DNA of 64,000 nt from Acidobacteria bacterium UBA6911 (lineage in GTDB: Bacteria > Acidobacteriota > UBA6911 > RPQK01 > JAJDTT01). Position numbers and translations under genes: made by a program. The DNA lies in assembly GCA_963579905.1 (NCBI GenBank), contig CAUZIZ010000003.1:3249-67248 (forward strand). The letters run 5' to 3'. The notes beneath the pieces were generated by a model, which saw nothing but the letters and a program-made list of their open reading frames with translations, did not search any database and was not told where the DNA came from. Positions 1 to 64,000 of this stretch are shown piece by piece (position 1 is the first letter of the stretch; each line of letters starts with the position of its first letter).

Positions 1-2726
1 CCAGGCATTGGGCCTTTGTGGCCCCAAAAAGGCCACTGCTTCCCGCAGTCAAGGGGAGGGTCTGGCCGGTCAATCCTATCGACGCCTTCATTCTTGCTCG
101 GCTCGAGCGGGAGGGACTTTCCCCTTCCAGCGAAGCCGCCCGGGTCACCTTGCTTCGGCGTTTGAGCCTGGACCTTATTGGATTGCCCCCCAGCATCGAA
201 GAAGTGGACGCGTTCCTGTTGGATCGGAGCGCGGACGCCTATCAGAAGCAGGTTGAGCGGCTGCTGTCGTCTCCCCACTACGGCGAGCGCTGGGGACGTC
301 ATTGGCTGGATGCGGCTCGGTACGCCGATTCAGATGGCTTCGAGCAAGACAAGCCAAGAAAAGTCTGGTTCTACCGTGACTGGGTCATCGATGCCCTGAA
401 CCGGGACTTGCCCTATGACCAGTTCATCATTCAACAAATAGCCGGAGACCTGTTGCCTGAGACCGGTCAAGACCAGATCGTGGCCACTGGATTTCTGCGC
501 AATTCCATGGTCAACGAAGAAGGTGGGATCGATCCGGAGCAGTTCCGGATGGAGGCCATGTTCGATCGCATGGACGCTATCGGCAAAGGCATCCTCGGGA
601 TCACGATACAGTGTGCCCAGTGCCACGACCACAAGTACGATCCCCTCAAGCAGGAAGAGTACTACCGCCTTTTTGCCTTCCTGAACAATGCCCACGAGGC
701 CAACGCTGCGGTCTACACCCCGGCGGAGCTGATGAGGAGAGCCCAGATCTTCAAGCGGATCCGCGAAATTGCGGGCGAACTCACACAGCGTACTCCCGAC
801 TATCAAGAACAAATGAGCCGGTGGGAGGACGAGGTCAGGGACAACCAACCCTCCTGGACCGTGCTTCGACCGACCGTAGAGGAAATTTCAACCGGCGGAC
901 AAAAATACCTTCCCCTGGGGGATGGATCTTTGCTGGCCCAGGGTTTCGCCCCCAGCAAGCATCGGGGTGAGATGAGTGCCCCGACGGACCTCAAGAATAT
1001 CACGGCCTTCCGACTGGAGCTGCTCAATGATCCCAACCTTCCCCTAAAGGGGCCCGGACGTTCGGTGAAAGGCACAGCTGCCTTGACCGAGTTCGAGGTG
1101 GAGGCGGCTCCGAGGGACGACCCGGAAAAGGCGGAGGCCGTCAAGATCGCCGCTGCTACGGCCGACGTCGCGCTTGCGGAGGCTCCTCTGGAGGCCTTCT
1201 TCGATGATCGGAGCAACCAGCCTCGGGTCACCGGGCCCGTCGATTTCGCCATCGATGGCAACGAGAATACGGCCTGGGGAATCGATGAGGGTCCGGCTCG
1301 TCGCAATCTTGCCCGCAAGGCTGTCTTCGTTGCCGAGACTCCAGTGTCCCATTCCGAAGGGACGCTTCTGACCTTCTACCTGAGCCAGAAACATGGCGGC
1401 CGTTACCATCGGAACCAGAATCTGGGTCGTTTTCGTCTCTCCGTCACCACGGCTCCCGAGGCCAAGGCTGATCCTTTGCCGAAGCGGGTTCGCGACATCC
1501 TCTCCACTCCCCTCAGCGAAAGAACACCTTCCCAGACTCGGCTCGTTTTCCGATTCTGGCGAACCACGGTGCCGGAATGGCGTCGGGAGAATGATGAAAT
1601 TGAAGCGCTGTGGCGCCAGCATCCGGAGGGTTCGCGCCAGCTGGTGTTGGAGGAGCGTGGGGAAAAACGCCCCACCCATGTCTTGAACCGTGGGGACTTC
1701 TTGAATCCTGCAAGAGAGGTTTCTCCAGGAGTTCCCTCCTTTCTGCATCCTCTACCCCCGGATGCTCGACCCGACCGTCTGGGCTTTGCCCGGTGGATGG
1801 TCTCTCGCGATTCACCCACGACGGCTCGCTCGCTAGTCAATCGAGTCTGGCAGATCTACTTTGGGACGGGCCTGGTGGCGAGCAGTGAGGATCTTGGTAG
1901 GCAAAGCGAGGCAGCTTCCCATCCAAAGCTGTTGGACTGGCTGGCTGTGGAGTTTATGGAGAAGGGCTGGAGCCTGAAGGAGCTGCACCGGTCTATCGTT
2001 TTCTCTGCCACCTACCGCCAGTCTTCCCAGGTTACTCCGGATGGGCTGAATGGCGATCCTTACAATCGTCTGTTGGCGAGAGGCCCTCGATTTCGGGTCG
2101 AGGCTGAGATCGTCCGCGACATCACGCTTGCCGCCAGCGGATTGTTGAATCCCAGCTTAGGAGGGGTCAGTGTGTATCCTCCCGCTCCCGGGTTTTTGTT
2201 CAAGGCTCCCTCCAGTTTCGGCCCGAAAATCTGGAAGGAAGAAATTGGAAGGAATCGATACCGTCGTGCCCTCTACACCTTCCGCTACCGCTCTGTCCCC
2301 TATCCCATGCTACAAACCTTCGATGCGCCCAATGGAGACTCCTCCTGTGTTCGGCGCTCTCGATCCAACACGCCCCTCCAGGCTTTGACGACTCTCAACG
2401 AACCTCTGTTTCTGGAGGCGGCCCAGGCCCTGGCGCTGAGGACCCTTCGAGAGGGCGGTGATTCGGATAGCGAGCGGTTGACCTATGCCTTTCGCCGTTG
2501 CCTGTCCAGACTCCCCAGGCAGGCTGAGAAGGAGGAGCTACTGAACTTGCTGGCAAAGCAGCGGGGTCGTCTTTCCCAGGGTTGGCTTGATCCTTGGGAC
2601 ATCGGCGGGTTCGGCCAGGAATTGAAATCCAGTCTTCCCGACCAAGCCACTCCGGTTCAGCTAGCCGCTTGGACGACGGTAACCCGGGTTCTCCTCAATC
2701 TGGATGAGACCATTACCAAAGAGTAG
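1..2726 (+). CDS. DUF1549/DUF1553 (PSD1) family protein. It is 5'-partial; the N-terminal part lies upstream of the window.
   Basis: ORF 18..2726. Motifs LSSPHYGERWGRHWLD..ARYADSDG and CHDHKYDP are shared with the full-length paralog at 54369..57131. Aligned to that paralog, about 180 N-terminal residues (the cytochrome c module) are missing at the window edge. Confidence 0.8.
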   Translation, partial: RHWAFVAPKRPLLPAVKGRVWPVNPIDAFILARLEREGLSPSSEAARVTLLRRLSLDLIGLPPSIEEVDAFLLDRSADAYQKQVERLLSSPHYGERWGRHWLDAARYADSDGFEQDKPRKVWFYRDWVIDALNRDLPYDQFIIQQIAGDLLPETGQDQIVATGFLRNSMVNEEGGIDPEQFRMEAMFDRMDAIGKGILGITIQCAQCHDHKYDPLKQEEYYRLFAFLNNAHEANAAVYTPAELMRRAQIFKRIREIAGELTQRTPDYQEQMSRWEDEVRDNQPSWTVLRPTVEEISTGGQKYLPLGDGSLLAQGFAPSKHRGEMSAPTDLKNITAFRLELLNDPNLPLKGPGRSVKGTAALTEFEVEAAPRDDPEKAEAVKIAAATADVALAEAPLEAFFDDRSNQPRVTGPVDFAIDGNENTAWGIDEGPARRNLARKAVFVAETPVSHSEGTLLTFYLSQKHGGRYHRNQNLGRFRLSVTTAPEAKADPLPKRVRDILSTPLSERTPSQTRLVFRFWRTTVPEWRRENDEIEALWRQHPEGSRQLVLEERGEKRPTHVLNRGDFLNPAREVSPGVPSFLHPLPPDARPDRLGFARWMVSRDSPTTARSLVNRVWQIYFGTGLVASSEDLGRQSEAASHPKLLDWLAVEFMEKGWSLKELHRSIVFSATYRQSSQVTPDGLNGDPYNRLLARGPRFRVEAEIVRDITLAASGLLNPSLGGVSVYPPAPGFLFKAPSSFGPKIWKEEIGRNRYRRALYTFRYRSVPYPMLQTFDAPNGDSSCVRRSRSNTPLQALTTLNEPLFLEAAQALALRTLREGGDSDSERLTYAFRRCLSRLPRQAEKEELLNLLAKQRGRLSQGWLDPWDIGGFGQELKSSLPDQATPVQLAAWTTVTRVLLNLDETITKE

Positions 2727-2810
2727 AATCCAAAAGTGGTCTCTGCACAGTATGGGGTCACAATCCGTCGCCCACAGCGAAGTCGGCTTTTTCCCGGCTA
2801 CTTGATGTGA

Positions 2811-63439: not shown

Positions 63440-63518
63440 AGTTTCTTTCTCGCATGGGGCCACCACAGCCAGCGTGAGGGACCGACCAGACACCCCAAGA
63501 TTACGAACGCCTGTGCGA

Positions 63519-64000
63519 TCAGTAAGAGACACCGTGGCCGAACTTCCGTGGATCGATCACGACATGCTTGATGCTTCGGCGCTTCCACGTGTAGCTGACA
63601 TGAACCAGGCCGTCCCCGGTCTGGACTACTGCCGGGTAGGAATACTCCCCTGGCTGATCCTCCAAGGTAAGGACCTTGGCCCAGCTCTTGCCATCCTTGG
63701 ATATGGCAACCTTTAGCGGTGATCTACCCTTGGTGGTGGGGTTGTAGACCAAGAGCTGCCGTTTATCCTTCAGCGTGACGGCATCAGTTCCAGAGTTTGG
63801 ATTCGGCAAGTCCGTCAACGTCATTTCACCCCACGTCTTGCCCCCGTCACTCGACCATGCTTCCCAAATCCGGCCCTGGCGGCTTCGGCCCAGCGCCTGT
63901 AGCCGTCCCCCGGGATGCGTGAGGATGCTCGGTTGAATGGCACTGATTGCTACTCCGTCGTTGATGGGCTGGGTGCGCGACCAGGTGCTACCCAGATCTG
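63519..64000 (-). CDS. BNR/Asp-box sialidase-like protein, 3' portion. The gene start lies beyond the window end.
   Basis: The ORF is open to the window edge. The upstream in-frame sequence includes a perfect Asp box SSDGGKTWGE. The C-terminus reads GEYSYPAVVQTGDGLVHVSYTW. Confidence 0.6.
   Translation of the reverse strand, partial: DLGSTWSRTQPINDGVAISAIQPSILTHPGGRLQALGRSRQGRIWEAWSSDGGKTWGEMTLTDLPNPNSGTDAVTLKDKRQLLVYNPTTKGRSPLKVAISKDGKSWAKVLTLEDQPGEYSYPAVVQTGDGLVHVSYTWKRRSIKHVVIDPRKFGHGVSY

Follow-up and report, generated by a model that had tools for sequence, protein, structure and literature searches.

Evidence for recent inactivation of numerous genes in a 64-kb chromosomal segment of an uncultured marine Acidobacteriota-like bacterium

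Introduction

A high density of young pseudogenes classically signals that a lineage has recently changed its lifestyle or population size. Many well-documented cases come from pathogens and insect symbionts, and few from environmental marine bacteria known from metagenomes only. In the reductive genomes of Mycobacterium leprae and Sodalis glossinidius, coding density is about 50–60% and 30–50% of the recognisable genes are dead. Yersinia pestis, Salmonella Typhi and Shigella carry a few per cent of pseudogenes, mostly with single hits and often mediated by insertion sequences (ISs). Trichodesmium erythraeum is free-living and marine, with a coding density of about 60–64% that is conserved in natural populations; its non-coding space consists largely of repeats, introns and transposases, and is partly transcribed. 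Our search of the literature on pseudogene-rich marine Acidobacteriota found nothing relevant. Here we describe the broken genes in a 64,000-nucleotide stretch of DNA from Acidobacteria bacterium UBA6911 (GenBank assembly GCA_963579905.1, contig CAUZIZ010000003.1, positions 3,249 to 67,248), hereafter the window, in which about 40% of the recognisable protein genes are disrupted.

Results

Lesions are clustered in a subset of genes

The window contains 21 firmly disrupted protein genes against about 32 that appear intact (about 40%), and three weaker candidates beyond the 21: a TPR fragment, a PhyH-like fragment and a reverse transcriptase (RT)-like fragment. The original prediction, made from the sequence alone, had put the disrupted share at about one third (roughly 20 of about 55 genes), an estimate that is borne out, with the true count somewhat higher. 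Intact features (coding sequences (CDSs) and two tRNAs) make up 61.5% of the window, and a further 24% consists of recognisable remnants. Homology of the pseudogenes was established from fragment matches to Pfam and NCBIfam profiles and from orthologues at 85–97% identity, and their disabling lesions were located by base-level maps against intact orthologues on three metagenomic contigs (L098, L097 and L107), or elsewhere by split or truncated profiles. Core and syntenic genes are among those lost (kdsA, kdsD and sthA, and a block of six genes), and several dead genes carry more than one lesion (SthA five, kdsA two, HDOD two).

A uniform lesion rate predicts about 18 lesions in the 38.7 kb of intact CDS, an expectation based on a rough count of about 30 disabling lesions for the whole window; none was seen (P ~1e-8). 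At the density found in orthologue-verified pseudogenes (about 2.2 per kb), about 84 lesions would be expected in the same 38.7 kb. The argument that random error would hit long genes most, put forward in the original prediction, is therefore valid and can now be stated in numbers, as 0 lesions against about 18 expected. The long open reading frames (ORFs) and the nqr operon are indeed intact; the ORF reported there as 902 aa (window 1–2726) belongs to a 1051-aa PSCyt1/PSCyt2/PSD1 gene, of which the window edge leaves the 3' part. Genes without lesions stand beside broken ones, including the PSCyt/DUF1501 genes, the SSF transporters and the following operon:

41111..48174, plus strand: nqrABCDEF, apbE and a conserved 74-aa gene, intact comparator, collinear with relatives L017 and L018 at 84–86% DNA identity

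Since the lesions cluster in a subset of genes and the rest are spared, the pattern points to selection in a living genome rather than noise. It also speaks against a segment that decays neutrally throughout, as dead DNA carried in another genome might. Crude coverage by ORFs of at least 300 aa was 54% in the window and 78–85% in most relatives' loci, a comparison that is confounded by gene content and on which we do not rely.

The lesions are reproduced in other assemblies

Exact-protein look-ups located window sequence on MEGAHIT k141 contigs of up to 93.8 kb in ENA (ERZ27247690, ERZ27247695, ERZ27247711 and ERZ27247714), in JGI 3300031802 and 3300031803, and in Logan SRR9039920 and SRR9039929. 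By coordinate mapping, the 93.8-kb contig (k141_2078328) runs about 43 kb past the window. BLASTN identity was 99.5–100% in every overlap. Wherever overlapping contigs covered a listed lesion, it was identical in each of these short-read assemblies (MEGAHIT, JGI and Logan, compared at contig level). Indel differences among all overlapping contigs were confined to 48.3–48.6 kb, the other differences being a few single-nucleotide polymorphisms (SNPs). The lesions are real and present in the natural population. They include C>T nonsense changes and deletions of 4, 11, 22, 24 and 25 bp and about 1.3 kb, changes that homopolymer error could not have generated. Contigs from three assemblers and several samples thus support genuine pseudogenisation, which the original prediction had preferred to a low-accuracy assembly.

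kdsA and kdsD are intact in a sister lineage

Two adjacent genes of 3-deoxy-D-manno-octulosonate (Kdo) synthesis are broken in the window:

20894..21942, minus strand: kdsD (arabinose-5-phosphate isomerase, SIS+CBS) pseudogene, 1-bp deletion at 21508–21512
21948..22763, minus strand: kdsA (Kdo-8-phosphate synthase) pseudogene, CAG>TAG at 22422..22424 in a conserved motif, plus an 11-bp deletion

Both genes are intact on contigs L098 and L099, which are 97.7% identical to the window at the DNA level. The sister lineage with this identity was sampled in ERZ27300295 and ERZ23486251. In kdsD, a C5 run is shortened to C4 (G4 on the plus strand, where the original prediction had placed the frameshift), and the SIS profile falls into separate frames (3–81 and 82–131), followed by CBS. 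Five C stand at this position in the intact 349-aa orthologues of L098 (97.7% DNA identity) and of the more distant relative L097. In kdsA, the TAG parts the DAHP_synth_1 profile into 11–108 and 112–254; the predicted in-frame stop is present, at a position 3 bases higher than the 22419..22421 originally read. The 11-bp deletion (about 21980–21990) lies between direct repeats, close to the 3' end. Reconstructed across the stop, KdsA matches intact 287-aa proteins at 97%, 91% and 90% identity. For the three closest intact KdsA (97%, 91%), exact matches occurred only in contigs from samples other than those holding the window. When substitutions in kdsA and kdsD were polarised with outgroups, nonsynonymous and synonymous changes numbered 9 and 6 on the window branch and 3 and 3 on that of the sister, a suggestive result in small numbers.

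The 141 bp upstream of kdsA (22767–22907) correspond to the start of a 2-hydroxyacid dehydrogenase gene found in the relatives with the 91% KdsA (L191, 386–1503), and about 1 kb of this L191 upstream region (386–1503) is missing from the window. Because the sister contig (97.7%) is collinear with the window across the upstream junction, the deletion of about 1 kb predates the kdsA and kdsD lesions. In L097, kdsB-pyrG precede kdsA; the kdsA-kdsD pair of the window is without these neighbours.

Six genes of a syntenic block are dead

The window from 49 to 60 kb is syntenic with loci L107–L109, at about 82–84% identity. There the order is SSF (510 aa), MFS (627), HDOD (291), SthA (472), PSCyt (936), DUF1501 (457), a 155-aa gene, a RoxA-like gene (507) and a sigma-54 activator. 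The window copies of SSF, PSCyt and DUF1501 are intact, with 85–93% amino-acid identity to L107–L109. The other six are intact in L107–L109 and dead in the window:

50939..51537, plus strand: MFS transporter, 1.29-kb internal deletion with its junction at about 51390
51777..52626, plus strand: HDOD-domain pseudogene, 1-bp deletion at 51989 and 22-bp deletion at 52540; the 291-aa orthologue is intact
52626..54119, plus strand: SthA (soluble pyridine nucleotide transhydrogenase) pseudogene, five lesions relative to the intact orthologue
59051..59511, minus strand: homologue of the relative's 155-aa gene, 4-bp deletion at 59306
59550..59987, minus strand: RoxA-like cytochrome c C-terminal remnant, residues 363–507 of 507 (145 aa) left
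59939..60148, plus strand: sigma-54 activator 5' remnant, abutting the RoxA-like remnant; a deletion of about 1.3 kb joins the two

The MFS transporter retains residues 9–156 and 572–626 of the 627-aa orthologue, with a Pfam profile match of 3–128 of 347. SthA has insertions of 1 bp at 52782 (C4) and 2 bp at 53087 (C5 context), an in-frame deletion of 24 bp at 53483, and deletions of 1 bp at 53546 (C7) and 2 bp at 53811; its Pfam match falls into five fragments in frames 0/1/0/2/0, and the reconstructed protein has intact 472-aa orthologues at 85% identity. The original prediction had recognised the MFS remnant, the frameshifted HDOD gene and multiple frameshifts in an sthA-like gene (C4, C5, C7 and one more), all of which were found, with the 24-bp deletion in addition. 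It had not listed the 155-aa gene, the RoxA-like cytochrome or the sigma-54 activator. The comparison of orthologous loci that it proposed as a check shows relatives with intact genes where the window has lesions. Judged by these alignments, the lesions are the derived state, since lineages at 2% and about 17% divergence have the orthologues intact.

The L107, L108 and L109 strains themselves differ by IS insertions (IS4-type, DDE_Tnp_1) and by an insert of two genes, one of them a DruA (Druantia) homologue. They also differ by split gene calls, with MFS divided into 256+410 aa and the RoxA-like gene into 197+343 aa; such splits could be errors, the contig names suggesting long-read assemblies with 11–44x coverage.

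Some lesions segregate among strains

One further broken gene, absent from the original prediction, lies in the region of indel differences:

48417..49130, minus strand: homologue of a 303-aa ORF of L018, with several frame changes; a 213-aa 'hypothetical' ORF lies here

Two changes occur in the window allele only and are missing from contigs L013 and L014: the loss of 25 bp at about 48603, between short direct repeats, and the insertion of 1 bp at 48337. The L013/L014 copy of the 303-aa-family gene retains the 25 bp, yet is frame-disrupted too. In contig L013 (ERZ27247695) the MFS gene stays in frame beyond the deletion junction and can be read for 373 aa, up to where the contig stops. Co-occurring strains are thus polymorphic for at least two lesions, indicating that decay is ongoing. 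Strain SNPs are concentrated at 8913–9795 and 48050–48650 (about 3% divergence, against about 0.1% elsewhere), and both hot spots coincide with pseudogene or remnant regions; they could reflect relaxed constraint or recombination with a diverged allele.

Genes broken by in-frame stops

Apart from kdsA, three genes are interrupted by in-frame stop codons:

2811..4079, minus strand: NhaP-type Na+/H+ antiporter pseudogene, single TAA at 3402..3404 replacing a Gln codon
9544..10722, plus strand: GH130-like paralogue, in-frame TAA at 9877..9879
14040..15074, plus strand: outer-membrane protein (OMP)-like (Phenol_MetA_deg-like) gene, TGA at 14115..14117 and TGA at 14124..14126, both in frame

The NhaP stop parts the Pfam Na_H_Exchanger profile into 4–194 and 211–368, a homologue with 51% identity has Gln at the stop position, and the resulting 188+225 aa split is also called in four other assemblies. 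The predicted stop is therefore confirmed, although its coordinate had been given as 3399..3401, 3 bases too low on this minus-strand gene. In the GH130-like copy, the TAA aligns to SQDG and SEDG in the intact paralogues at 27868..29379 and 10844..12565, in agreement with the prediction. The OMP-like gene has a ribosome-binding site, an ATG at 14040 and a clear signal peptide, followed downstream by the two TGA codons exactly where they had been claimed. At each of the TAA and TAG stops (3402–3404, 9877–9879 and 22422–22424) at least one homologue has a Gln codon, consistent with single C>T transitions (CAA>TAA, CAG>TAG). At 9877–9879 the other paralogue reads Glu, which makes GAA>TAA a possible alternative. 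The lesion spectrum of the window is that of ordinary spontaneous mutation, with C>T nonsense changes at Gln codons, slippage in short homopolymers, and deletions of 4–25 bp and 1–1.3 kb.

Among intact genes, TAG terminates 16, TGA 12 and TAA 4. Since all three stop codons end intact genes, reassignment of the code is excluded.

Other frameshifted genes and remnants

Further disrupted genes were recognised from split or truncated profiles:

9058..9540, plus strand: aminotransferase class I/II 3' remnant, Pfam profile 248–349 of 361 only
15261..15690, plus strand: class I S-adenosylmethionine (SAM)-methyltransferase pseudogene in three reading frames, frameshifts at about 15330 and about 15455 (estimated by eye)
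39745..40646, plus strand: UPF0104/LPG_synthase_TM pseudogene, one frameshift at about 40250–40290
60108..60719, minus strand: enolase-superfamily (MR_MLE) N-terminal remnant, MR_MLE_N 27–117 of 117, MR_MLE_C only 4–52 of 219

Joined, the three pieces of the methyltransferase match Methyltransf_31 with E=3.6e-12 (profile 31–121 of 145), against E=0.01 for a lone frame; the gene is frameshifted as claimed, and its three frames give at least two shifts where three or more had been counted. The LPG_synthase_TM profile runs through two overlapping frames (27–199 and 209–302), and gene calls on JGI and ENA contigs show an identical 198+102 aa split. The predicted frameshift is thus present; the T4 run named as its site is plausible, within the interval of about 40250–40290. 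The aminotransferase, enolase and IS91 remnants of the original prediction are upheld by truncated profiles, and its integrase remnant by a C-terminal motif.

Three of its claims fared less well. The TPR fragment stays a weak candidate. A vWA-like frameshifted gene was never located; stop-masked Pfam scans were empty at 33.4–34.3 and 37.3–39.1 kb (six frames) and at 12.6–13.4 kb (three plus frames). A PhyH remnant is unsubstantiated: the sole clear PhyH gene (62105..62947) is intact, with a profile match of 3–212 of 213, and a possible PhyH N-terminal remnant at 35686..36087 (minus strand) has a match of 15 residues only. In addition, a short frame at about 38850–39110 (minus strand) contains an RT-like motif (…EKGFDFLGYHF…YVGRWLGW…). 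It returned no Pfam match, and may be the remnant of an RT of group II intron or retron type.

A decayed island, GH130-like paralogues and mobile elements

Several remnants are associated with a tRNA-linked island or belong to one paralogue family:

31436..37906, no strand: decayed integrated island, about 6.3 kb, with a tRNA-Leu 3' repeat and an integrase remnant
31436..31522, strand not given: tRNA-Leu(TAG), island border
31571..31789, minus strand: integrase C-terminal remnant (LGHADIQTTMRYVHY), adjoining tRNA-Leu
34247..34435, strand not given: GH130-like remnant within the tRNA-Leu island
34639..35577, strand not given: truncated IS91 transposase, profile 16–253 of 356, below the curated cut-off
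39116..39742, minus strand: GH130-like C-terminal remnant, residues 305–513 of a 520-aa stop-to-stop translation
62984..63436, plus strand: GH130-like N-terminal remnant, residues 39–113 of the same 520-aa stop-to-stop translation

The island is bounded by a repeat of the 3' half of tRNA-Leu (31464..31533 and 37838..37906, 94% identical), and also carries SSF transporter and BNR genes, all of them intact. With its integrase reduced to a remnant, the island is immobile. It contributes about 3–4 of the 21 disrupted genes; the others lie in non-island, partly syntenic chromosome. One intact IS6 element is present, single-copy by exact transposase look-up, with no IS expansion evident, and no gene in the window is disrupted by an IS insertion.

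The GH130-like family is represented by two intact copies (573 and 503 aa), the nonsense copy and four further fragments. The 520-aa stop-to-stop translation used as reference above (27817..29376) contains the intact 503-aa paralogue. The fragments are confirmed as remnants of one family, as originally proposed; the GH130 label is provisional, with a weak PDB match to beta-1,2-mannobiose phosphorylase (E=0.024) as its only support.

An element whose conserved core spans about 75–90 nt (…GTTGTCCAGCTCTCTCCTCGGAACTTGGCCTCATGTTGCTAACGGCTCAAGTCGTTCGCGGCTCTGACGG…) is repeated at window positions 12640–12790 (plus), 40806–40960 (plus) and 54150–54300 (minus), one copy lying 150 nt upstream of nqrA, and three copies are present in relative L018 (4660–4790, 6810–6960 and 10560–10690). 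It has no Rfam match, and a fold is backed by one compensatory pair only. It could be an element resembling a miniature inverted-repeat transposable element (MITE) or a repetitive extragenic palindrome (REP), or a small RNA or leader.

Affiliation and flanks of the window

The window represents ordinary chromosomal DNA of an uncultured marine bacterium, with a G+C content of 58%. It encodes two tRNAs (Pro and Leu), beyond which no other Rfam family was found in the 64 kb. A scan of GTDB species representatives with NqrF returned no genome of the same species. The nearest were two metagenome-assembled genomes (MAGs) labelled 'Acidobacteriota bacterium', one of them Langseth_Bin_00184, whose NqrF is 94–95% identical to that of the window and whose nqr operon DNA is 84–86% identical. 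Synteny with these two MAGs ends just outside the nqr-apbE block. Named KdsA homologues are mostly Acidobacteriota by label. The window also contains two PSCyt/PSD1 genes and a DUF1501 gene; these families are usually associated with Planctomycetota, yet the nearest public genomes are labelled Acidobacteriota.

An exact-protein look-up with NqrD retrieved the same population only, at this one locus, and not the sister lineage. A metagenome scan with a 1056-aa VCPO-like protein yielded no orthologous neighbourhood for the left third of the window (homologues at most 78% identical). A chimeric query of four joined reconstructed pseudogenes returned only long multidomain antiporters (at least 590 aa), and plots of G+C at third codon positions (GC3) failed to tell coding frames from non-coding ones in DNA of 58% G+C.

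Overlapping contigs extended the sequence by about 3 kb to the left and about 8 kb to the right, bringing the portion of the genome that was read to about 75 kb. The left flank (L005 493–1662, about window −1636..−467) contains a GMC oxidoreductase without its C-domain. The right flank (L104 15326–18272, about window 66.2–69.2 kb) contains an Amidohydro_2 fragment (profile 134–274 of 289) and a 158-aa and 553-aa pair (short E1-like ORF) resembling a disrupted E1 (transketolase-like) dehydrogenase subunit.

Discussion

We conclude with considerable confidence that a large minority of the genes in the window were recently inactivated and are under erosion, that is, by reductive pseudogenisation. 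Purifying selection would have been lifted from a subset of functions, comprising Kdo synthesis, transhydrogenase, several transporters, regulators and glycoside-hydrolase-like paralogues. Deletion-biased mutation would then remove the relaxed genes as selection still guards the rest. Genes once inactivated have gathered further hits. The window appears to have been caught at an early, still polymorphic stage. The likely cause would be a changed lifestyle or a reduced effective population size; the low diversity among contigs (at least 99.5% identity) is compatible with a bottleneck, without being diagnostic of one.

Several points weigh against this conclusion. About ten of the hypothetical ORFs counted as intact are without an orthologue for comparison, and one such ORF was later found broken. 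The substitution counts in kdsA and kdsD are small, and the ratio of nonsynonymous to synonymous changes on the sister branch is also near 1. The assemblies, independent by assembler and sample, may nevertheless represent one sampling campaign and perhaps one population. Intact second copies of kdsA, kdsD or sthA may lie elsewhere in the genome. Finally, the tRNA-linked island, IS6, the IS91 remnant and five dead paralogue copies mean that part of the excess is debris of a flexible region.

This last point leads to the possibility, which we regard as real although clearly the lesser one, that pseudogenes are concentrated in a flexible, island-rich segment and that the remaining genome is normal. 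The direct repeats and integrase remnant at tRNA-Leu, the two mobile elements, and the nonsense copy and four fragments of a single GH130-like family fit such a local accumulation, as do the rearranged context upstream of kdsA relative to L097 and the SNP hot spots at 8.9–9.8 and 48.0–48.7 kb. It is harder to reconcile with broken housekeeping genes (kdsA, kdsD and sthA), with a six-gene block that is syntenic and intact in a related species, with the core nqr operon in mid-region, and with truncated genes in both reachable flanks. Because housekeeping and syntenic genes are hit, island debris alone does not explain the pattern, and erosion would probably reach beyond the window. Alternatively, the broken genes might be surplus duplicates with intact paralogues elsewhere, so that no function was lost. 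Within the window, several members can be seen of each of the GH130-like, PSCyt, SSF and GMC families, and kdsA-kdsD is without the kdsB-pyrG neighbours of L097. We consider this explanation improbable in view of three observations: exact matches to the closest intact KdsA are absent from the samples holding the window, the relatives with the 91% KdsA share the upstream gene start beside a kdsA that is intact, and the MFS-HDOD-SthA block is the syntenic copy and not an extra one.

Two technical or functional explanations deserve almost no credence. Homopolymer miscalls or a low-accuracy consensus could be suspected from the several frameshifts in runs of 4–7 identical bases, but three short-read assemblers and several samples show zero indel differences at the covered lesions, many of the lesions are nonsense substitutions or deletions of 4–25 bp or about 1.3 kb, and the long genes are lesion-free. 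Functional recoding (stop reassignment or readthrough, programmed frameshifting, or phase-variable contingency loci) is just as hard to sustain. It might be read from the fact that both OMP-like stops are TGA and that some shifts fall in homopolymers. Against it, TAG, TGA and TAA all terminate intact genes and all three types also occur in frame in broken ones, orthologues are single-frame and unshifted, the homopolymer tracts vary in length in none of the strains, and the broken genes carry large deletions too.

How far the inactivation inferred for the window extends is a separate matter. From the roughly 75 kb read, we put the chance that erosion is genome-wide at about even. A bolder interpretation, which we offer tentatively and think somewhat unlikely as a whole, is that a pelagic or deep-water marine lineage of Acidobacteriota is in early, rapid, genome-wide reduction, losing synthesis of Kdo (of the inner core of lipopolysaccharide), soluble transhydrogenase, transporters and regulators, with the losses falling within less than 2.3% divergence from a sister intact at kdsA and kdsD. 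If so, the lineage would lately have come to depend on a host or partner, or have passed through a severe bottleneck. To our knowledge, early genome-wide reduction has not been described in this phylum. The system offers unusually good natural controls, in a sister about 2% diverged with undamaged kdsA and kdsD, a syntenic relative intact at six other genes, and segregating alleles. If the pattern holds genome-wide, this lineage would make it possible to work out when and in what order genes are lost in nature. Marker-based completeness scores and gene callers penalise such genomes, in which fragments appear as short 'hypothetical proteins', and they are easily mistaken for poor assemblies.

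Comparison with known systems

Like M. leprae and Sodalis, the window has a lowered coding density and a large share of dead genes, combines nonsense changes, small indels and deletions, shows multiple hits per dead gene, and has kept core energy metabolism. Those organisms are host-restricted and were analysed as whole genomes, whereas here about 75 kb come from marine metagenomes with no known host, and no IS expansion is evident (one intact single-copy IS6). As in Y. pestis, Typhi and Shigella, the lesions are very young, a 2.3%-diverged lineage being intact at kdsA and kdsD, and some still segregate; unlike in those pathogens, about 40% of genes are affected locally, with up to five hits per gene and no IS-interrupted gene. 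The window shares with Trichodesmium an environmental marine origin and a low coding density that is reproduced in metagenomes and is no culture artefact, but its non-coding space consists mainly of recognisable remnants of ordinary genes. The segment at 31.4–37.9 kb, with its tRNA-Leu 3' direct repeat, integrase remnant and IS debris, resembles other decayed tRNA-linked islands, although most of the disrupted genes lie outside it. The mechanism is ordinary and of an already known kind; the interest comes from its occurrence in an uncultured marine Acidobacteriota-like lineage with an intact sister as control.

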